From: Candidatus Bathyarchaeota archaeon
Lineage (GTDB): Archaea > Thermoproteota > Bathyarchaeia > Bathyarchaeales > Bathycorpusculaceae
Reading direction: 5' to 3'
NCBI GenBank assembly: GCA_963702095.1
Contig: OY969706.1
Span: forward strand, 1,952,001-2,016,000
Length of the DNA stretch: 64,000 nucleotides
Part shown: positions 2,891-18,293 of the stretch, in pieces
Layout: each line of letters starts with the position of its first letter
How positions within the stretch are numbered: position 1 is the first letter of the stretch
Position numbers and translations under genes: made by a program
Notes under the pieces: model-generated
Seen by the model: only the letters and a program-made list of their open reading frames with translations
What the model was told of the DNA's origin: nothing
The model's database searches: none

Positions 2891-3013
2891 ATGGCTGTCT
2901 GCCCAAACTGTGGAAAACACCTCACAAAACCCACCAAACAGTTCGAAAACATAGCATTCAAAATCTCCGCTTACACTTGTAGCAACTGCGGAACAACGTT
3001 TAAAACCACTTGA
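2891..3013 (+). CDS. 40-aa Zn-ribbon microprotein (Cren7-like pattern), absent from ORF track
   Basis: Hand translation MAVCPNCGKHLTKPTKQFENIAFKISAYTCSNCGTTFKTT*; GGGAG upstream. Confidence 0.75.
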   Translation: MAVCPNCGKHLTKPTKQFENIAFKISAYTCSNCGTTFKTT

Positions 3014-3070
3014 TGATTATTTGCATAAATCTTATGTATTACAATGTATTCTCTAGCTATCGGGGTATAC

Positions 3071-8613: not shown

Positions 8614-9282
8614 CTAATGTTTTATTGTTTTTCTTCCTTTACGTGGGTGAGGGTAAACAGGTTTGTGGTTTGACCAGCATTTCTGGCAGAAAACCGGTTT
8701 GTCTGCTTTAGGCTGAAAAGGCACATCGCATTCAGAGCCGCATTCACTGCAAACCGCCTTATAAGTTGGGGATGTATGGAACGGCTTGAAAAGCTGATAC
8801 TTCTTTAGTTTTGGCCAACCGGTTTTTGCGTAGCGGATCATTTCAGGGTTATTTTTGAGCCACCGCATCATGTGGAAAAAGTTTTTGCCTCGCTTCTCAT
8901 CCCGCTCAGCTAGGGGTTCGTAGCCTAGGTTGCGGATTTCGTCGAGGTAAGCGATTTCTACGAGACGTTGGGTTTCACCTTCGACGTGGATGCGTTTAAC
9001 TCGGTCTTCGCCGTAGACTTTTTGGAGTTCTTCGGCGGCGACGTCGAAGATGCAGCCTTGGCAGATGTGGATGGGCTCGTCTGCTTTGAGGTCAAATTTG
9101 GAAACAAGGCTTGATACAACACGTGAAGATTCTTGGAGGTATTCTTTTTCTCGGAAGATGTCTTGGTAGAATCTGACATCGATTAACTCGTATTTGAATT
9201 CGCCTGTTTCTTCATGGTAAGCGCCGACTACAACGCCGAAAAGCAAGTCGCCGCTTCCTGCGTCGTCAACGATAAGTGTCAA
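8614..9282 (-). CDS. RNase HII-like fold protein with C-terminal CxxC-x17-CxxC Zn finger
   Basis: IVDDAGSGDLLFGVVVG resembles RNase HII DEAGRG.L.GP.V; C-terminal CSECGSECDVPFQPKADKPVFCQKC; probable TTG start at 9282. Confidence 0.65.
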   Translation of the reverse strand: MTLIVDDAGSGDLLFGVVVGAYHEETGEFKYELIDVRFYQDIFREKEYLQESSRVVSSLVSKFDLKADEPIHICQGCIFDVAAEELQKVYGEDRVKRIHVEGETQRLVEIAYLDEIRNLGYEPLAERDEKRGKNFFHMMRWLKNNPEMIRYAKTGWPKLKKYQLFKPFHTSPTYKAVCSECGSECDVPFQPKADKPVFCQKCWSNHKPVYPHPRKGRKTIKH

Positions 9283-9340
9283 TTGTGCTGTTTCACTCTC
9301 TCTTCTCAACTCAAATTGTCGGGGTAATATAAAAACCCGT

Positions 9341-9348
9341 CTTACCCA
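9341..9348 (+). repeat. left 8-bp target-site duplication CTTACCCA
   Basis: Identical to 15415-15422; both abut the TIRs directly. Confidence 0.92.
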
Positions 9349-9450
9349 GGTTCTGTTAACTTCATGGGCGATGATTCTCTGTGTTAAGAATCGGGTGATA
9401 AATCCTCTCTTTTTTGTGGGCTGGATTTGGGCTGTTAATTTTCGGGTGAT
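9349..9450 (+). repeat. left TIR (9349-9372) and subterminal repeats (9382-9399, 9433-9450)
   Basis: GGTTCTGTTAACTTCATGGGCGAT; TGTTAAGAATCGGGTGAT; TGTTAATTTTCGGGTGAT. Confidence 0.9.
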
Positions 9451-9663
9451 GACCGAACCGAGCATTTGAGTTCTGAAGTATCGGGTTGGGCTTCTGATTT
9501 CTGGGGCATCGGGCTAACATTGAGAGTTCTGAACGGGGCTGGCTGTTACTTGAATCGGCTAAATATAACAGCTAAAAACTAAATACCGATTGCACTCGCT
9601 AAATTGCAAAAAAAGTTACAATTAGCCTTAAATACTAACAATATCAGATAACCAACATCAGAA

Positions 9664-9936
9664 GTGTTTAGTATGGAGATAAAACTATTCGAGTTATTTA
9701 GAACCGACACTTTGCGCCATCGCGAAACAGCTAGAATAGTCGTTAATCTCTTAGAAGAAAAAAAAGAAACGCAAAATGTAATAGATTTTGACCAGATTGT
9801 ATTTGCCTCTCGTTCTTTTCTTCACGAATTATTGTGCGATATCGGCAATAAAAAAGTAGTCTTCCATAACACAAACGAGGAGATTAGACAAATGATGGAA
9901 ATAGCGAAAAAGGGAGTACATCCCTTACTAGCCTAA
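9664..9936 (+). CDS. STAS-like (DUF4325-type) protein
   Basis: VIDFDQIVFASRSFLHELL motif; about 90 aa. Confidence 0.75.
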   Translation: MFSMEIKLFELFRTDTLRHRETARIVVNLLEEKKETQNVIDFDQIVFASRSFLHELLCDIGNKKVVFHNTNEEIRQMMEIAKKGVHPLLA

Positions 9937-10751
9937 CTAACGAATTTATAAATTTCAATATCCTTGGGCGTAAAGTTTAGGGCAACTAAGGAACCATCCC
10001 ATCCAGATTTTAGCTTCAATATCTTCGTTTCATCAGCTTTATGATAAACTAACGCCTTTCCAGACATTATTATCATTTTACCGCCAAACCCATTTACGCA
10101 TAGTTTAGAAATACTTTGTATACCGTTGCCTCTGCCTTTCCAGTCTTTTTTAGAAGACTTGCCCTTAAAGGCATTAATTATTGCCTCATCATCTGTTTTT
10201 GCTTCGTATTCCGTGCCCTTATATGATTTTTTATAACCAATCCCGCAATCGGCAATAACAATCTCGCAAGTTTTTACTTTTGGTTTTTTATAATATTGAG
10301 CAAGAAGCCAATAATTATCAATATGAGCATGTTCATTTACGTTGTTGATTATTTCACTCGTAAAATACTTTAGCGCTGTTTTTTCTACGTTCATTTCCTT
10401 GATAATCCTATTTTCATACTCGCTGAGCATTTCACTGTCGGCTTCTTTGGCAACCATTTTAGTTATTGGTAAGTATTTTTTTGCTTTAGAAAAATCAGCA
10501 ACACCCTCTTGGAACCCAATAGTCTCAAGATAACGGCAAACATCTTCATCTTCTTCCAAACAATTGATTGTTAACTCATTATTGTTGGCATAGACAGCTA
10601 AGGGTAAAATTGAAAGAGGCGTAACAAACTTAACCTGTATTAAGTCAATTGACTTTTTACCACTGTTTATTGCTTTTTCCATTTCTGCAATATTTTTTAT
10701 TAGCTCATCGATTCGTTCTGATATCCCAAAAGGGTTAGCTATTACCTGCAT
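9933..10751 (-). CDS. STAS-like + HATPase_c (anti-sigma-kinase-like) protein
   Basis: IDLIQVKFVTPLS; SEIINNVNEHA N-box; IADCGIG; GRGNGI. Confidence 0.8.
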   Translation of the reverse strand: MQVIANPFGISERIDELIKNIAEMEKAINSGKKSIDLIQVKFVTPLSILPLAVYANNNELTINCLEEDEDVCRYLETIGFQEGVADFSKAKKYLPITKMVAKEADSEMLSEYENRIIKEMNVEKTALKYFTSEIINNVNEHAHIDNYWLLAQYYKKPKVKTCEIVIADCGIGYKKSYKGTEYEAKTDDEAIINAFKGKSSKKDWKGRGNGIQSISKLCVNGFGGKMIIMSGKALVYHKADETKILKLKSGWDGSLVALNFTPKDIEIYKFVS

Positions 10752-10816
10752 TTAGCCATACCTCGGTAGCCCTCAATGAGGGGAAAGTTGTATTTAAAAT
10801 TGTGTATCTAATGGCG

Positions 10817-11947
10817 CTAAGTATCAATTACCTGCTTGCTTGCGTTTTCTATGATAGTTCGCCATTTATCCTGTCCCTGAATCATAATGCCGCAAGCCTC
10901 GGCGGGTGTTTTGCCGTTTAAAGCCTCATGGGGTCTAACGTAATTGTGGTAAAGTTGATAGCCCTTAAGAATCTGAGTATCGGTCTTCTTTAATCCCCGC
11001 ATGACCTTTTCTCTATCTCGGATTTCTCCGTTCATGCGCTCCATTTTGTTGTTGTGAATATCCCCTCTAAGTTTGATGTGTTTAACATGCTCTGTTCTTG
11101 GTCCTTTTAGTGTCCAGAACTCTTTTTTGTAAGCATCATGATAAGACGCTAACCCATCAGTGACAAACACTGTGGGTTTTTTGCCCATAAGTTCCTTAGA
11201 CATTCTAAGTAGGTTGCGTGCATCATGCTTGTATTTTGTATCTGCGACTTCTTGGGCTATCCAGAAGCGGGTTTCATCGTCCATCATAGCAAACAAGTAT
11301 TTCATATCGCCGTTAATTTTTACCCAAACCTCATCAGCCCGCCACTTATCACCCACATTCGGCTTTATCTTTTCAAGATATTGGGTCATAAGTGTGGTGT
11401 ACTTGTTTATCCATTTTAGGATTGAGACATGGCTGATTATTACGCCTTGGAGTTTTAGGAATTTCTGGACATTGCGTAGGCTTTCTCCTGTGAAGTAGAG
11501 TTGCATGGCAGAGGTAATAACTTGTGGGCTTGCCTTCATCCCGTTAAAACCGACATTGACGCTAAAGCGTTTACCACATGCCTTGCAGAGGTAACGTTGT
11601 AGGTCATACTTTTTGTTGTGACGTATGGCATCCTTAACGATATTTTCTGAACCACAAAAAACACAGCTAGCCATATTTAGGGGTTGGATAACAATATTGC
11701 GTTTGACCTGTTCCTTCATTTTAAGGCTGACTTCAACGGCAACCATGTGTTTGCATTTTACATGACGGAATTGATGGTCTGGGCATTCACAGTTCCATTT
11801 ACCATCTACCATAAAAACCGCATATTCACCGTTTCCGCTTTGAGATTTCACGGTGTAAAAGTTCTCTTCTATACAATTTACTTGACTCTCTTTTGCTTGG
11901 GCGATTTCTAAGCCCCGACTTTCTCTTAAACTGCTAATAGCGTTCAA
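10817..11947 (-). CDS. IS6/IS240-type DDE transposase with SWIM and Zn-ribbon domains
   Basis: CECPDH..CKH (SWIM); CVFCGS..QRYLCKACGKRF; WRADE, VTDG, NNKMER (DDE); YHNYVRPHEALNGKTPAEA. Confidence 0.92.
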   Translation of the reverse strand: MNAISSLRESRGLEIAQAKESQVNCIEENFYTVKSQSGNGEYAVFMVDGKWNCECPDHQFRHVKCKHMVAVEVSLKMKEQVKRNIVIQPLNMASCVFCGSENIVKDAIRHNKKYDLQRYLCKACGKRFSVNVGFNGMKASPQVITSAMQLYFTGESLRNVQKFLKLQGVIISHVSILKWINKYTTLMTQYLEKIKPNVGDKWRADEVWVKINGDMKYLFAMMDDETRFWIAQEVADTKYKHDARNLLRMSKELMGKKPTVFVTDGLASYHDAYKKEFWTLKGPRTEHVKHIKLRGDIHNNKMERMNGEIRDREKVMRGLKKTDTQILKGYQLYHNYVRPHEALNGKTPAEACGIMIQGQDKWRTIIENASKQVIDT

Positions 11948-12000
11948 CCGCTAACACCTTGCAGTATATTACTAATAGGTATAGCATATATATGCTTTAC

Positions 12001-12055
12001 GCTATTATACAAGCGCTATAATAGCAATCGTTATATACAATTGCTATTATACAAG
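12001..12055. promoter_or_regulatory. operator/promoter between the divergent transposase and cargo operon
   Basis: GCTATTATACAAG direct repeat (12001, 12043); 12-bp inverted repeat TATAATAGCAAT (12017-12028)/ATTGCTATTATA (12040-12051) around TTATATA. Confidence 0.75.
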
Positions 12056-12068
12056 TAACCGATGCCTT

Positions 12069-12239
12069 ATGGGCAAAGTACAGATTGAAGCATGGAAATG
12101 TGAGAGATGCGCACATGTATGGTTGCCGAGAAACACCTTTCAAGAGCCAAAAGTTTGTCCAAAATGTAAAAGCCCTTACTGGAATGTACCAAAGCGCAAT
12201 CAAAACATCTCAAAAGAGAAAAAAGGGATTGAAAAATAA
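12069..12239 (+). CDS. 56-aa Zn-finger microprotein, absent from ORF track
   Basis: Hand translation MGKVQIEAWKCERCAHVWLPRNTFQEPKVCPKCKSPYWNVPKRNQNISKEKKGIEK*; TAATG coupling to the next gene. Confidence 0.85.
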   Translation: MGKVQIEAWKCERCAHVWLPRNTFQEPKVCPKCKSPYWNVPKRNQNISKEKKGIEK

Positions 12240-14807
12240 TGTCAGAAAGTCTTTCTCAAGGATTACCTTTTTTGGAACTTAATCAGCAAGGCTTAAAACT
12301 TTACAAAGCAAACGATATACCCTTTACTAATCTCAAAGAAGCAGGATTTAATTGCCAAAAAAGCGCTAAAAAGCCTGACCAGTTTGTAGCGCAAGGCAAA
12401 AATATCTTAATTGGAATTGAGGATAAGGCATCATCAAGCGAAATTGATATTGCATCCAACCAATTAAAAACAAATTATTTAGATGCTCTTCCAGATACAA
12501 AATACTTCATAGCGAGAGCTGGTGAAAGAACTAAAGTATACTATCGAATTGCCTCTAACAAAATTATTGAAATCGGCACAACATCAAAAGGTAAGGAAGT
12601 TATTTGTTTCGCTGCAAAAATAATAACAGGTGAAAACAAAGAAATCCAAAAAAACCTACTTTATTTACCGAGCAAGTTCTTGCTGGGAAAGAGCCTATTA
12701 ACGGTTCAATCGAAATTCAACCCCCAAAAGAGTATTACAACCCTCTAATCGTCAAACAAAATACCATCTATAACCTATGGCAAAAAATATTCGTTTGCAC
12801 AGGCGAGAATGCACATAAATGCCTAGAAACCTTTGTAGAACTCCTATTATTCAAGGGAATATCAGATGCAAAGCTATTACCAAAAGATTTTTCGATAGAA
12901 ACTTTAGCAGACCCTAGTAAAAGCAACTCTCTTGAAACATACAAAAACACAGTTAGAAATTACATAAAAACCAACATATTCCCCACGATATCCAATCAAC
13001 CAGGTGTCATCAATGGTTTCGCATTTCAGGATGAAGAAACAGTTTTTAAGACTGTACTAAAGGACTTAATAGGTCTGGGAAATATAGCTCAGAAACAAAT
13101 CGACCCTGATTTTAAACGCAGAATAATTGAAGCTTTCTTAGGCTCAGCACATAGAGAAGGAACCATAAAAAATGGAAAACATCTAACACCAAGAGCAATT
13201 ATTCAAGCAATCTGGGAGATGGCAGACCCTCAAGAAGGAAAGCGTATCTGTGACCCCGCTTGTGGAGTAGGTGGCTTCGTTCTTAGAAGGTCTCAATTAT
13301 CCTTACGAATTTGACCCCATCAAATACAACTGCTTAGGGATAGATAGGGACGAACAAATGATAATCACGTCGAAAGCTAACATGATACTTCACATACTCG
13401 ACAAATTTCTTGATACAAGCATTGGAAAAAATGCTTTATCTGCAAAGATTAACTCGACATTCTATCAAGCTAAAAATAACGGAACAGGAACTCTGGGCGA
13501 ACTTGTAGAAGTTGCAGACAAAACGGCACAATTCCAACCTAAGCATCAAGCAGACTATGTTTTTTCCAATGTCCCCTTTTACATAAACGGAGTCACGCAA
13601 ATCGATGATAGCCTACGAGATTTAGGGTTCGCAAGTTTCTATAATGGGTGTGGTTTAGGAGTCGAAAGCCGATTTATTAAATATGTTTTGGGTCAGATAA
13701 AGAATGGCGACCCTGGACTTAGCTTTTGTAATTGTAACTGACGGCATATTATATCGGCACAAAGATAAGGCAAGAGAAACAATAAAGGAAAATGCGGATG
13801 TACTCGGTATAATCTCATTACCAGAAGGCGTTTTTCAAAACAACAACTGGAAAACCTCAATTCTAATCCTAAAAAAGAAAGGAGTACAACCTGAGTATTC
13901 ACCCGTATTTCTTTATAATGTTGACAACATTGGAATTTCCCTTGATTCTTACAGGACTCCTACTGAAGAAAATGATATACCTAACATGAAGAGAGCATGG
14001 CAACAGCGTTTTTCGGGAAAAACAAATGATGACCCAAAATGTAAATTGGTTCCAAGAGAGGATTTTATTAACGCTGATAAGTGGTCAGACCTGTTTGCAG
14101 ACTGGAGAAAAGCCGATACATCCAATAACATATCAATTTCGGAGTTTATTGAAAATGCAAGCAGTGTAAACGCTGATATCGGAAAAATGCTTAATGACGC
14201 AGATAAAAAACTTGGAGAAATCTTTGCTATGGATAGATACGCCGAGTTACAACTAAGTAACAAAATTTATTTCCAAGTTCAAACTTCGCCATTTAAAACG
14301 ACTGTAAAAACTGCTCGGCTTAACCCTGGAAGATATCCGTTATTCTCTTCTCAAGTTAATGGTCCAATCGAGTTTATGGAAGACAAGAAAACGCCACCTA
14401 TCTTAATTGGTAATGAAACAAATGGAGAAAATAAGAGACTTATCAGTTGGAATATAAAAGGTGACCCTTGTAAAGATATTAGGGTACACGAAGAACCGTT
14501 TTATGCCACCGAAAATAGAGGACTAATATCTGTAGTAAACGACAAGATTGATTTTCACTATTTGCTTTATTACTTGAGAGAGCATTTGGTTACATCAGGG
14601 AAGTTTAAGCGTTCTAATGAAGCCCATGCTGGTAAAGTAAAGAATATCAAGATTAAAGTTCCGATTGATGATAAGGGCAAAATCGATTTGTCGAAACAAA
14701 GAGAAATAGCTAAGAACTATGAAAAAATAGTGGATTTACGCAAGAAAATGACTGAGAGAATAACAGAGATGCAGACACTATTAAGTGAAATCGATATTTT
14801 CAAGTAA
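12239..14807 (+). pseudogene. type IIG-like restriction-modification fusion (PD-ExK nuclease, N6-adenine MTase, specificity domain) with three frameshifts (near 12667, 13283, 13719)
   Basis: KPDQFV..IEDK; hand-read middle frame LWQKIF..CLETFVELLLFKGISD..HLTPR..ICDPACGVGGF; SNVPF; IISLPEGVF; HsdS-like IKVP..LSKQREIA. Confidence 0.8.
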
Positions 14808-14924
14808 CGGTTTCTTGGTTTCAATTTTATTTTCCTATCTATCACTTTAGAGATATGTTAAGCGAAAAATAGGCAAACCTTATTTGCTTTCAGTTTTAAT
14901 AATATTTGATTTGGTGGTGTCATT

Positions 14925-15311
14925 TTGCCTAAATGCCCATCTTGTGGAACTAATACAGAGAGGGTTTTAAAGGAATGGGATTACTCATCATTCCATGTAA
15001 AGAATATGGAGTGCCCTAACTGTCTAAAAACCTTTAAAGTATACTTCAAAGAAGGCAAGCTTAGCCACATAATTGAGACCAACGAGGCAAATGCTAAAAA
15101 AAGAATAAAAGATTTTTTGGAAAAAACTGGGGGGGCAACAACATTAGAGATAGCTGATATTCTGGAACTTGATGTAATGGATGTTATACGGTTGCTTGGT
15201 GACCTTGAAGACGGTTTCGTTATTGAAAGAATCTCTCAACCAAAAGAGAAAGAGCATATGTTCCGTAAAACAAATAATAAACCAATTGAAAGCGCAATTG
15301 TTGATAATTAA
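14925..15311 (+). CDS. Cren7-like Zn ribbon fused to winged HTH
   Basis: CPSCG..KEWDY..FHVK..ECPNCLKTF; GGATTLEIADILEL..VIRLLGDLE. Confidence 0.7.
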   Translation: MPKCPSCGTNTERVLKEWDYSSFHVKNMECPNCLKTFKVYFKEGKLSHIIETNEANAKKRIKDFLEKTGGATTLEIADILELDVMDVIRLLGDLEDGFVIERISQPKEKEHMFRKTNNKPIESAIVDN

Positions 15312-15322
15312 CCCATCCTATT

Positions 15323-15414
15323 ATCACCCGACTGTTAACATGGACAATTTCCGCACCTAAACAATCACCCGAAACTTAACAAGAAGAAGTATCGCCCACG
15401 AAGTTAACAGAACC
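15323..15414 (-). repeat. right TIR (15391-15414) and subterminal repeats (15364-15381, 15323-15340)
   Basis: Reverse complement GGTTCTGTTAACTTCGTGGGCGAT; TGTTAAGTTTCGGGTGAT; TGTTAACAGTCGGGTGAT. Confidence 0.9.
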
Positions 15415-15422
15415 CTTACCCA
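15415..15422 (+). repeat. right 8-bp target-site duplication CTTACCCA
   Basis: Identical to 9341-9348. Confidence 0.92.
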
Positions 15423-15497
15423 AACTACATAAAAACAGGGAAAAACAGTACTAGATACATATTTTTGGAATAAGCATTGTAGAGTTACTACTTTTTG

Positions 15498-15905
15498 TTA
15501 GTGGTTGAGAGAATTATCACAGAATGGCGAGGTTTGCCTTGCAACCCCTGTGATGTTGCCTTCTACTGCTTTGATTAGTAGTTCTGTGTTTACTGGTTTT
15601 GAAAAAGCTATGTCGGCACCACACGCGATTGACGCTATAGTATTTTCCAGTGAAGGATAATCAGTTAAAACTACAGCTATTGTGCTTGGCAGCTGCTTCT
15701 TGGTGAACGTTAGGAGTTCGGTTGCATCGTTGCAGGAAGGACCATAATTGACAATTATGCATGAATAGGCGCTGTTTTGTATCTTCTTTTGGGCTTGCAA
15801 ATGGTCGCCCGCCACCTCAACATTGTAGCCTAATCTGCTAAATAATCTGTCGAAAGCTCCGGAAGTGCGTATGTCCGAATCAACAATCAAGAGTTTTTTA
15901 GCCAT
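15498..15905 (-). CDS. stand-alone receiver (CheY-like) domain, atypical
   Basis: LLIVDSD, VVLTDY, GAD.AFSKP; phosphoacceptor position reads IIVNY. Confidence 0.8.
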   Translation of the reverse strand: MAKKLLIVDSDIRTSGAFDRLFSRLGYNVEVAGDHLQAQKKIQNSAYSCIIVNYGPSCNDATELLTFTKKQLPSTIAVVLTDYPSLENTIASIACGADIAFSKPVNTELLIKAVEGNITGVARQTSPFCDNSLNH

Positions 15906-16062
15906 ACAATCCCCTTTTTGCTGTGAATTACCGTTTGGAAGGTTATAGAACAATGGTTGCTTTGGTACATATTTAGGGGTTTGTTGTAACAGCGTGTAAC
16001 CAACAAAGTCACCAAGCAGCCCTTTTCGCCTCAAAAAAGTGTTTTTTGTTTTTTCTAGTTTA

Positions 16063-16179
16063 AGATGAAGGCAGCGTCGCCCTTACTCATCTTCTTCTGG
16101 CGGGTCATGCAGGCGACTGCATTTTTTGTCCTGCAATTGATAGAGGTTTCTGGCTGGTTGTGGACGTTTCCACAAGCAG
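16063..16179 (+). repeat. diverged 117-bp direct repeat, copy A
   Basis: Ungapped hand alignment with 18934-19050, 86/117 identical. Confidence 0.75.
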
Positions 16180-16316
16180 AACAACGGAATGTTGAATAAC
16201 AATTAGATAGCGCTTTTTATTCCTGTTTGAGTAATGAAAACGGTGAGATCTACCAAAACACACGCTTTATTTCTAGAAAAATCCAAAAAAGGGGATGACG
16301 CTGCATTTAGCTGCAG

Positions 16317-16442
16317 TTACTTCCAGAAGCATATGCCATGATGTTTCTCTTCTTTCTTTGCTTTAACAAACATTTTCAATCCAATCGCAGTCATAGCGGC
16401 TCCGATGCCTGCAAGCACCAGATATTTCTTGTAATGATGCAT
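16317..16442 (-). CDS. small single-TM protein
   Basis: MHHYKKYLVLAGIGAAMTAIGLKMFVKAKK; GGTGA upstream. Confidence 0.5.
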   Translation of the reverse strand: MHHYKKYLVLAGIGAAMTAIGLKMFVKAKKEEKHHGICFWK

Positions 16443-16513
16443 AAAATCACCCAGAAAACCCAACGGAAAAACATCTAATAAATTTGTGTTGGCACAAAAG
16501 AGAAGAACTCCCA

Positions 16514-16702
16514 CTAAACAGGGGTACCCCCCTCTACTTTTAAACGTTTGATTAGTGCCTCCATGTATTGCCTGTCAAACACCCGGTCTTCAAGTAAAGC
16601 ATTCGCCAACACATGAAGCTTCAAATCGTTTAGCACCGCAGTCTTCCGCAGTTCCTTATGGATGTTCTCGCGGACTTCAACTACAACACGCCTACTCATC
16701 AC
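16514..16702 (-). CDS. small RHH-like protein
   Basis: RVVVEVRENIHKELRKTAV beta-helix-helix pattern; GGTGA upstream. Confidence 0.6.
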   Translation of the reverse strand: MMSRRVVVEVRENIHKELRKTAVLNDLKLHVLANALLEDRVFDRQYMEALIKRLKVEGGTPV

Positions 16703-16707
16703 ATCAC

Positions 16708-18293
16708 CTACGGCTTGGAGGTTTTGTATCGGCTTAAACTGCTGGTTCGGCTACGCAGTACATACACGTAATCCGCTAACAGAGGCTTCTCATGCCCCAA
16801 CTCCAAAGTCGCCTGCATGGTCTGGGTTTTACCGTCAACCCTGTATTCGACGGATTCCACACGGAAATCGCTCTCTACACCTTCGTTGGGTAGGACGACG
16901 TGGATTTTGTCGCCTGCAAGGATGGGGTTGTTGCCGTAGTCGAGCACGGTGGTTTGGAGGCTCAGTGTTTCGGCGGGGTCTTTGAGGTTGGCAAGTAATG
17001 CTTTGGCGTGGGATTCACATTGCAGGTCGCTGGCATACTCTTCGTTGGCATCTACCAGTTCGCGGAGGCCGATGCTGTTTTGGCTTGCCAAATCGTTTTG
17101 GATGCTGCTGTAGCGTCTGCCCCCGAAGTTTAGGCCATCAACCCAGAAGTTGCCTGAACCTACACCCGTAAACCACAACGAGACCTGTACACTGTGGATT
17201 TGGTTCCAGTTGAATTGCCCTGGAATCTGCCATTGATCAGCGCTGTTGGACCCTACTGAGAGCTGTGTCTGGAACCATTTCCCGTCGCCCAAAGTCAATT
17301 CACGGGAGACAAGGTTGCTGTTGACGTCGTGGAGTACGATGGTTGCGTTGCCGTTGAAGCTGGCATCTCGGCTAAGCCAAAGGTTAAGGGTTGGGTATTG
17401 GTCAGCGTCGATTTCTTTGCCGCTGGCTAAGGTGAATCGAGAGCTGGCATAGTAGAGGTTTTGGGCTGCGGTTTTTATGCTGGCGGCGCCTTTGGCATAG
17501 TTGGAGGTGTCTTGGCTGATGCTGCCTGAAACCGCCATCCAAGCGCCGTCGCTGCAGGAGAGGGCTTCGGTCCACCCGTCCTTGTCTAGGGGGACGCTTT
17601 TGTCTTGGGCGCCGTAGATGATGATTCGGTTGCGGACGCGGGTGATGTCTTTGCTGTATTCACACCCTTCGATGCGTTCACTGAGGTCTACCTGGCTGTT
17701 TTTTGTGTTTTTGGGGTAGACTCGAATTTTCCGTCTGGGGCAACCCGATAATCGTAGCCTATTACGCCTGCTTTGTCAGCGCTGCCTGCGATTTCGCGGA
17801 GAATATCCATGACTGGGGTGTCGCTGTAGCTGAGTTTGGTGTAGGTGGTGTCGGTGGATTCTATGAGTTCGGCGCCGCTGCGGCTGTGGCTTAAGCCCAC
17901 GTAGTAGTCGAGGAGGTCTTTGACTATGTCTTCGCCTTTGATGTTTTCGTAGGTTGCGGTGACGACGCGGCGGAAGAGGCGTTCGCCCCAGCAGCGCCCG
18001 CTCACTGTGAGATAGTTTTCTGCTGGGCTGGATTGATACTTGATGTTTTCGACCCGGCAAGTAATCAGCTGGGGACAGCTGGCGCCTCTGCATAGGCTTA
18101 TGCTGCCATCTAAGCCCACGGTGATGGGGTATGAGCCGTTGGGACTGTATTTGCCACTCCAATTCTGCAGCACCACCTCAAAACTGCTGACTTCTTTGGT
18201 GCAGCCCAAATGCAACATCAACTCCACAACGTCACCCTGCGGAGGAGTGACGGAGCCGAAAACGATGGCTACATCGGGGGTGTCAAGGCTCAT
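16708..18293 (-). pseudogene. tailed-virus tail/baseplate hub-like protein, single frameshift near 17720
   Basis: ORFs 17688-18293 and 16708-17538 join via FE/YPKNTKN..RVRNRIIIYG; LTVSGRCW and ILAGDKIHV..FRVESVEY tail-type motifs. Confidence 0.65.

Follow-up and report, generated by a model that had tools for sequence, protein, structure and literature searches.

A probable IS6-like unit transposon carrying passenger genes in a Bathyarchaeota genome, and its relatives in archaea

A stretch of 64,000 nucleotides from a genome of Candidatus Bathyarchaeota archaeon (GenBank assembly GCA_963702095.1, contig OY969706.1, positions 1,952,001 to 2,016,000; the whole stretch is referred to here as the window) was found to contain an element of 6,066 bp, at window positions 9349-15414, in which one transposase gene lies together with passenger genes between a single pair of terminal inverted repeats (TIRs). 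The element very probably is a unit, or non-composite, transposon whose two multi-motif ends are recognized by a single IS6-type DDE transposase. It was inserted into an intergenic site through an 8-bp staggered cut, which left a target-site duplication (TSD) of the sequence CTTACCCA. It was also one of 51 related elements that could be delimited in archaea, and together these apparently make up an undescribed, IS6-derived family of archaeal unit transposons.

Ends, empty site and transposase of the window element

The two 24-bp TIRs (IRL at 9349-9372 and IRR at 15391-15414) are complementary at 23 of 24 positions. Read from position 9341, the left end consists of CTTACCCA followed by GGTTCTGTTAACTTCATGGGCGAT; the right end is the reverse complement with one mismatch and is followed by CTTACCCA up to 15422, and the two TSD copies (9341-9348 and 15415-15422) are identical. 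An earlier note on this DNA, made from the letters alone, had described the TIRs, the exact flanking repeats and a 6.07-kb element at 9341-15422; the ends, the repeats and the size were verified, but that span includes both duplications. According to a repeat finder, the inverted repeat is 51 nt long, with 84% identity (9349-9399 with 15364-15414), and further subterminal repeats are present. An 18-to-19-bp motif, TGTTAA-N4-5-YGGGYGAT, was found exactly six times in the window, three times in each end, within about 100 bp of each tip and inverted between the ends. The left end (9349-9450, plus strand) has its copies at 9354-9372, 9382-9399 and 9433-9450, and the right end (15323-15414, minus strand) at 15391-15409, 15364-15381 and 15323-15340; the motif was absent from 100 shuffles. 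When the 24-mer was sought in the element's own genome (one contig of 2,937,366 bases) with up to three mismatches, it was found only at the two ends in the window, and the reversed-pattern control gave no match in that genome.

A DNA search of 40 relatives provided the site without the element. In a congener (G007, contig C67), the match to the left flank ends at window position 9348 (93% identity), the match to the right flank starts at 15415 (81%), and 8 bp are common to both matches; the alignment to G007 runs from flank to flank through a single CTTACCCA. Since one CTTACCCA joins both flanks, this contig represents the unoccupied target site, and the 6,066 bp must therefore have arrived as one unit, duplicating 8 bp. 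The earlier note had expected such an empty site in relatives. The insertion site is intergenic: a response-regulator gene on the minus strand (15498-16034) ends with its stop codon on one side, and the start region of a zinc-finger gene lies on the other. The G+C content is 37.3% in the element and 46.6% in the window.

The transposase, a protein of 376 amino acids (aa) encoded at 10817-11947 on the minus strand, combines a SWIM zinc finger, a zinc ribbon, a helix-turn-helix (HTH) region and a DDE domain, as judged from the PF13610 and NF033587 models and from an alignment. The DDE domain matched PF13610 (DDE_Tnp_IS240) at 58.3 bits against a cutoff of 27, the SWIM match reached 23 bits, and the zinc ribbon is of the IS1/IS1595 type. 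The best family match was the IS6 model of NCBIfam (NF033587; 125.2 bits, cutoff 125), followed by the IS1 model (55.6 bits, cutoff 100). In the alignment of 16 homologues, D205, D264, E303 and R310 were invariant, as were C53, C55, C65 and H67 of the SWIM domain and C95, C98 and C121 of the ribbon. The earlier note had called the element IS6-like, and the two best models of the transposase and its invariant D/D/E and R residues agree with that name; the single internal transposase gene with passengers on both sides that the note described was likewise found, with open reading frames (ORFs) to the left and right of 10817-11947. Compared with 72,556 plasmids, the transposase matched 4,680 records, all at less than 60% identity. 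Among the matches listed (15 of the 4,680), 12 lay over an annotated IS6-family transposase at 23-29% identity, 2 lay where no feature is annotated, and 1 was in a record without annotation; they included a clostridial IS6-family plasmid transposase (28% over residues 64-362) and IS257, IS1216 and ISEas1 (23-29%). Moreover, because public annotation already names some of the 5,573 homologues "IS6 family transposase" (in metagenome-assembled genomes labelled Bathyarchaeota or Bathyarchaeia), the enzyme is not new, whereas the element type apparently is. Transposons of the Tn3 family have a TnpA of about 1,000 aa, 38-bp repeats, a 5-bp duplication and a resolvase; no Tn3-type protein (TnpA or resolvase) was found among the ORFs of the element, and its TSD of 8 bp also places it outside that family.

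Related elements in the genus, the phylum and viral contigs

With up to three mismatches allowed, 31 of the 101 genomes examined in the genus contained the TIR 24-mer, against a single match overall for the reversed-pattern control, and transposase homologues (E <= 1e-60) were found in 32 of the 101. The DNA on each side of 40 homologues (about 9.4 kb) was taken, and 44 loci were scanned by brute force for inverted GG...CC 24-mers. A TIR pair matching at 18 or more of 24 positions around the transposase, together with an 8-of-8 duplication, was present at 32 of the 44 loci (31 from one scan and L053 from facing-end pairs); a looser TIR threshold with a perfect duplication added five more, L104 included, and L084 and L085, delimited independently as identical copies at two sites, completed the total of 39. 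In the rest of the phylum, homologues (E <= 1e-40) were present in 38 of 401 genomes, and in 28 of 56 in family f21. Of 20 loci taken from the phylum's other families, 12 had the same ends and perfect duplications, around elements of 2,179 to 5,210 bp.

Altogether, 51 related elements were delimited, each with a transposase homologue between GGTTCTGT-type ends. They measure 2,179 to 7,477 bp (median, 3,429 bp), and the window element is the second largest. Each has a perfect 8-bp duplication, and all 51 duplications differ, with no target-site consensus evident among them; for 17 of the 51, the search itself required the duplication to be perfect. All 51 exceed 2.1 kb, and none is as small as a transposase-only insertion sequence (IS). 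The end consensus reads GGTTCTGTnAAgT..., and a TGT(T/A)AA block occurs in it for a second time at +34 to +39. The tips are GG in all 102 ends (GG was required by the scan), positions 5 to 8 (CTGT) are 84 to 100% conserved, and positions 10 to 13 read AAgT. In 23 of the 102 ends, the core 9-mer of that end is repeated subterminally, at 16 times the interior density, and end sequences co-vary with the lineage of the transposase. The earlier note had expected homologues to have similar ends, different duplications and variable cargo, which was the case at 39 of the 44 genus loci and 12 of the 20 phylum loci. It had also placed the novelty in this particular architecture; the architecture is not singular, however, since the family is big and the element ranks among its larger members.

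Seven facing-end pairs were examined. Perfect 8-bp duplications were found in L053 (5,343 bp), L054 (7,477 bp) and L058 (5,375 bp), a 7-of-8 duplication was found in L056, and none was found in L052, L055 or L057. The last four loci have family-type TIRs around DNA without a transposase gene (L052:1001-3560, L055:1001-7469, L056:1001-6465 and L057:1001-4569); L055 and L057 occupy one and the same site in two genomes but differ in content.

Two of the delimited elements, L084:8461-10894 and L085:8415-10848, are 100% identical over 2,434 bp and occupy different sites of genome G053, with the TSDs CTCTCTCT and TCGAACAG; each encodes a 271-aa protein of unknown function, the transposase and a 61-aa AbrB-like protein. 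Identical at different sites, they are direct evidence that G053 recently gained a copy. The window's own genome has a second, diverged member, L104:8114-11542 (G000:C1:1160513-1163941), of 3,429 bp with the TSD CCTTTGAG; its transposase is 55% identical to that of the window element, and its cargo consists of membrane-like ORFs of 380 and 173 aa without a known family. More distantly related, with a transposase at 35% identity, are two identical copies of 1,420 bp in genome G291 (L125:9175-10594 and L126:9305-10724). These have the size of a simple IS and may represent the ancestral form. At L059 (G007:C14), two TIRs resembling the left end (2001-2024 and 3000-3023) lie in direct orientation about 1 kb apart. 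No facing partner was found for them at up to five mismatches, and they may be solo ends or parts of a rearranged element.

A scan of IMG/VR revealed five loci that encode relatives of the transposase. Two of the four such loci that were scanned for ends contain complete elements with 8-bp duplications of their own, at L133:6576-9159 (2,584 bp) and L135:6650-9586 (2,937 bp). The flanks of L133 matched PHROG families of a helicase, a clamp loader, a reverse transcriptase and a tail protein, and the flank of L135 matched a PHROG tail protein. As a lead from these contigs, which may be free viruses or proviruses, viruses would appear to carry family elements; since complete copies sit in contigs resembling tailed viruses, viruses may be a vehicle between cells.

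Passengers and the small accessory gene

When all ORFs of the 51 elements were clustered, only the transposase was universal. An AbrB/SpoVT-like protein of 55 to 79 aa was present in 26 of the 51 elements (23 after overlap filtering), and other groups of small genes encoded a second AbrB-like protein (4 elements), a ribbon-helix-helix protein (4) or a zinc-ribbon protein (3, the window's included). A small ORF of one of these four kinds was thus found in 34 of the 51 elements. It adjoins the transposase gene except in the maps of L118 and L054, and where the two are adjacent they are divergent. An apparent upstream "OrfA" codirectional with the transposase was discarded, as these frames were antisense shadows of the AbrB-like gene on the opposite strand.

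In the window element, the gene at this position encodes a 56-aa zinc-ribbon protein (CxxC...CxxC; 12069-12239, plus strand) that falls into one cluster (C12) with the small ORFs that three other elements have at this position. It is divergent from the transposase gene across 121 bp (11948-12068) that contain palindromes and repeats of GCTATTATA, as seen in the sequence and in a repeat search. Inverted repeats were found at 12017-12031/12037-12051 (93%) and 12001-12009/12017-12025 (100%), and a direct repeat at 12006-12023/12034-12051. From this arrangement, the region would be an operator and promoter region, and the small protein plausibly represses this shared, palindrome-containing promoter region. 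The stop codon of the 56-aa gene overlaps the start of a restriction-modification (R-M) gene, and the gene was at first taken for a controller of the R-M cargo. That reading was dropped, its position being that of the small ORF in 34 of the 51 elements; the protein may serve the transposase, the cargo or both.

The rest of the cargo was variable, with one to eight passengers per family element and different cargo in elements whose transposases are 73 to 82% identical. Most cargo ORFs belong to no known family. R-M systems of type II and of type IIG are part of the cargo, and of the 32 elements that were delimited in the genus under the strict criteria, 7 have R-M genes. The recognizable cargo includes an HSDR_N nuclease-domain protein with an N6/Eco57I methyltransferase (L053); an AlwI-like nuclease fused to a methyltransferase, with an S subunit, an EVE-like protein and ParE (L054); NOV_C, a type IIG enzyme and an S subunit (L058); an N4/N6 methyltransferase (L072); a 763-aa type IIG enzyme preceded by a small zinc-ribbon gene of the window type (L074); a BsaWI-like endonuclease with a methyltransferase (L077); and NYN (L091), HEPN (L093), SocA/Panacea with DUF4145 (L095), Trypco2 (L090) and class-24 methyltransferase (L086) proteins. 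Among the units without a transposase, L056 carries a PLD-type endonuclease and two methyltransferases, and L055 carries a methyltransferase with GHKL proteins. When 16 and then 74 cargo proteins were searched with PADLOC, clear matches were obtained for R-M methyltransferases, for one NYN/HEC-09 protein and, in L055, to a restriction-enzyme model; the weak matches were to DarG, PDC-M19A, TmtA, Specificity_I and Cas2_II.

Two genes lie to the left of the transposase in the window element. The first (9664-9936, plus strand) encodes a 90-aa protein that had no match in Pfam, NCBIfam or PADLOC; as a lead only, its nearest clusters by protein-language features were DUF4325 (STAS-like), at a score of 0.92. 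The second (9933-10751, minus strand), convergent and overlapping with the first, encodes a 272-aa protein with a GHKL-type ATP-binding fold. This protein had no profile match, its feature-based neighbours were clusters named "ATP-binding protein/histidine kinase" (score 0.98), and a source gives the name anti-sigma factor/Ser-Thr kinase to 2 of the 41 homologues. Its AlphaFold (AF2) model (pLDDT 85, pTM 0.87) matched histidine-kinase catalytic domains, Topo VI-B and CheA P4 best among PDB structures in Foldseek, with E values of 2e-4 to 1e-3; the template-modelling (TM) scores of these matches are low because only part of the model aligns. The earlier note's label of kinase/STAS cargo is thus reasonable for a GHKL-fold ATPase next to a DUF4325-like protein, but the defence role that it had attached to the cargo is not borne out for this pair, for which PADLOC found nothing. 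The matches of the transposase and of the GHKL protein share longest-contig values of 5,848, 428,441, 2,858 and 3,772. These shared values hint that the GHKL/DUF4325 module rides with the transposase elsewhere, and the 5.8-kb contig is close to the element's own size.

To the right of the small gene lies a type IIG-like R-M gene (12239-14807, plus strand) with an N-terminal region, an N6-adenine methyltransferase and a specificity domain, which is divided into four frame segments by three frameshifts. Three-frame translations placed the breaks near 12650-12700 (beside an A7 run), 13270 and 13700, such that the methyltransferase motif I region, the motif IV region and the C-terminal methyltransferase and specificity part are in three different frames. 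Methyltransferase motifs were recognized in the middle segments, N6_Mtase/MTase_I and Specificity_I matches fell on the last segment, and the intact 763-aa enzyme of L074 was colinear across the frames (tblastn). No profile detected a nuclease domain in this gene, and nuclease, methyltransferase and specificity parts in one intact frame, as in a type IIG enzyme, were not found. The gene is probably a dead pseudogene, as read from its frames. The coding density of the window is 85%, with long ORFs, and the other genes of the element are intact; the frameshifts are therefore read as true decay, and assembly error is an unlikely cause even though one of the breaks is near the A7 run. Hence the R-M gene of the earlier note is present, but in a broken state. 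The last passenger, a 128-aa zinc-ribbon and winged-HTH-like protein encoded beside the right end and reading outward (14925-15311, plus strand), is 35 to 37% identical to end-proximal, outward-reading ORFs of L054 and L056, and its L056 homologue has weak matches to TrmB and TFIIE-alpha.

The decay of the R-M gene raises the question of whether the window copy as a whole is an immobile relic, that is, a recent insertion whose cargo is decaying and whose transposase is inactive. The three frameshifts, the single copy in the genome and the one mismatch between the TIRs would all fit such a relic. However, the transposase frame is intact and keeps all residues that are invariant in the 16 homologues, the duplication is perfect, all six end motifs are intact, and the other four cargo ORFs are open; moreover, the coding density and long ORFs of the window make the frameshifts specific to the R-M gene. 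We regard the relic as a possible but rather doubtful account of this copy.

On the left flank, the zinc-finger host gene (minus strand) encodes a C-terminal CxxC-x17-CxxC finger. A 283-aa ORF at 8614-9465 (minus strand) that crosses IRL is an artefact in which an open frame runs 39 codons into the element, and the real start of the gene is probably near 9283. On the strand of this gene, a TATA-like TTTTTATATTA follows about 5 bp downstream of the insertion. Just to the right of the response-regulator gene, about 140 bp (16042-16183) have at least six further copies in the same genome, at 77 to 82% identity, and occur in congeners as well; this repeat may be a small zinc-finger coding module or a miniature inverted-repeat transposable element. 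No RNA family was found in 9000-16800 (Rfam, E <= 0.1).

Movement, rival explanations and comparison with known systems

In the mechanism that we propose, the single SWIM/zinc-ribbon IS6-type transposase would act on two inverted ends with three 18-to-19-bp motifs each, and all genes between the ends would move as passengers. These are the GHKL-ATPase/DUF4325-like pair, the regulator-like zinc-ribbon gene, the frameshifted type IIG-like gene and the zinc-ribbon/winged-HTH-like gene. The family would be built on a backbone of ends and transposase, usually joined by a neighbouring small gene of DNA-binding type whose product would regulate the divergent promoter region, with cargo exchanged freely around this backbone. 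By analogy with the IS6 family, replicative movement would generate a cointegrate that contains the whole element twice in direct orientation, and the two copies would offer ample substrate for resolution by host homologous recombination. The motif triplets and the SWIM and ribbon domains suggest a synaptic complex more elaborate than that of IS26. That a unit transposon moves cargo here had been proposed in the earlier note, and the single TIR pair, the empty site and the unrelated cargo of close relatives bear this out.

Several observations weigh against placing the element and its relatives in such a scheme. The score of the transposase with the IS6 model sits exactly at the cutoff of that model. 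The IS6 repeat consensus has a "caaa" block that is not evident in the end consensus of the 51 elements, and classical IS6 ends are simple repeats of 15 to 20 bp, in contrast to the longer, multi-site ends found here, so that the mechanism may differ from that of IS26. The window element is single copy in its genome. No TIR and duplication pair was found in the scan at 5 of the 44 genus loci (L103, L107, which is at a contig edge, and L109 to L111, whose transposases are only 34 to 40% identical) or at 8 of the 20 phylum loci. In genome G128, two identical 4,027-bp copies with GGAACTGGTAAC-type ends (L120:6742-10768 and L121:9132-13158), in inverted orientation on one chromosome, lack matching duplications; flank exchange by recombination failed to explain them on inspection. 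Finally, since the R-M cargo of the window copy is broken, a description as carrying defence fits the family more than this copy.

The alternative that bears on the route of movement accepts the element as a true family member but has it move by cut-and-paste rather than through IS6-type replicative cointegrates. Most lineages are single copy in their genomes, and the multi-site ends resemble those of transposons with elaborate transpososomes, as would be expected of this route; the 8-bp duplication and the clean empty site fit either one. On the other hand, the catalytic domain is of the IS6 type, a family described as cointegrate forming (PMC7986276, in the part available), and the identical copies at two sites in G053 and in G128 represent gains of a copy. 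In our analysis, replicative movement would be favoured, cut-and-paste would be unlikely though not negligible, and a smaller share would be left for neither. That the transposase instead belongs to a small ordinary IS nested by chance in a larger, unrelated and nonautonomous cassette is so improbable that this reading was rejected: cassettes that have the same TIRs and no transposase occur (L052, L055, L056 and L057), which means that ends and transposase can be uncoupled, but no inner inverted-repeat pair surrounds 10817-11947, a GGTTCTGT-type pair with a perfect duplication encloses the transposase in 51 independent elements, the smallest of these is 2,179 bp and therefore none is transposase-sized, and end sequences co-vary with the transposase lineage.

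For the unit transposon itself, no description of this family was found in full-text searches of the literature or in the available part of the 2021 IS6 review (PMC7986276), with ISfinder, TnCentral and supplementary tables outside the comparison. The earlier note had asked whether the structure was already described, and the available part of that review gives only one passenger-carrying member, ISDsp3, which has one passenger gene. We incline, by a modest degree, to the view that this is the first recognized family of autonomous cargo-carrying DDE transposons of archaea. It would combine an IS6-derived chassis and multi-site ends with an interchangeable small DNA-binding protein (AbrB, ribbon-helix-helix or zinc-ribbon type) and with passengers that are always carried and freely swapped; viruses are a possible vehicle, new genes for defence or counter-defence may be hidden among the unknown passengers, and the lineage would extend across at least two classes' worth of phylum families.

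If the family is indeed undescribed, the gap around passenger-carrying IS6 members would be filled by dozens of precisely delimited elements, and an IS6-type enzyme could serve a unit transposon and not only pseudo-compound ones. The GGTTCTGT ends would then be a simple handle for collecting mobile accessory genes from Bathyarchaeia-type and related archaea, and a route would be provided for the spread of R-M systems in uncultured archaea. The family would move R-M, toxin-antitoxin-like and unknown genes between archaea and, as the viral contigs lead us to suspect, into archaeal viruses.

By its transposase, its tips and its duplication, the element would belong with the IS6 family (IS26, IS257, IS1216; clades h and i), with which it shares an IS6-type DDE domain and the 8-bp duplication and which its ends resemble in part (GG tips and a CTGT core, but no evident caaa block), and some described members also have N-terminal zinc-finger extensions (PMC7986276, in the part available). 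That part of the review describes ends with GG tips and cTGTt and caaa motifs, transposition via cointegrates resolved by host recombination, cargo that normally moves between two direct IS copies, short archaeal clades (700 to 750 bp) and a zinc-finger clade that is mainly clostridial. However, IS6 members are there described as having about 0.7 to 1.8 kb, one ORF and cargo only as pseudo-compound transposons, whereas the present elements have 2.2 to 7.5 kb and one to eight passengers. With 6,066 bp and at least five further genes, the window element would fall outside the definition of a compact one-gene IS, and the family further differs in having multi-site ends, a SWIM domain and, as a rule, a small accessory gene adjacent to that of the transposase.

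Mobile insertion cassettes (MICs) are cargo derivatives bounded by IS ends and devoid of a transposase, and here likewise there are transposase-less derivatives with the same ends and cargo (L055 and L056). Transporter IS (tIS), as presented in the available part of PMC7986276, share IS-type ends and a transposase with passengers unrelated to transposition. The window element has this organization of a tIS or unit transposon, with a single transposase in one TIR pair and the whole 6,066 bp inserted together. In contrast to tIS and MICs, cargo carriage is here the rule for a whole lineage, all 51 elements exceeding 2.1 kb, and the hosts are archaea. The target duplication of Tn7 is 5 bp, compared with 8 bp here. 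Tn7-like transposons with defence cargo, in the part of PMC8649781 that was available, share variable cargo including defence genes and repeated end motifs. The present elements differ from these in having no TnsABC(D/E) genes and no att-site targeting, in relying on a single small DDE protein and in being much smaller. Work of the Kobayashi group has reportedly described mobile R-M units in bacteria, either as IS-flanked composites or as units with long repeats. These share with the present elements R-M genes that move as a transposable unit with a target duplication; the archaeal family differs in that one internal IS6-type transposase accompanies cargo in which R-M and non-R-M genes are interchangeable.

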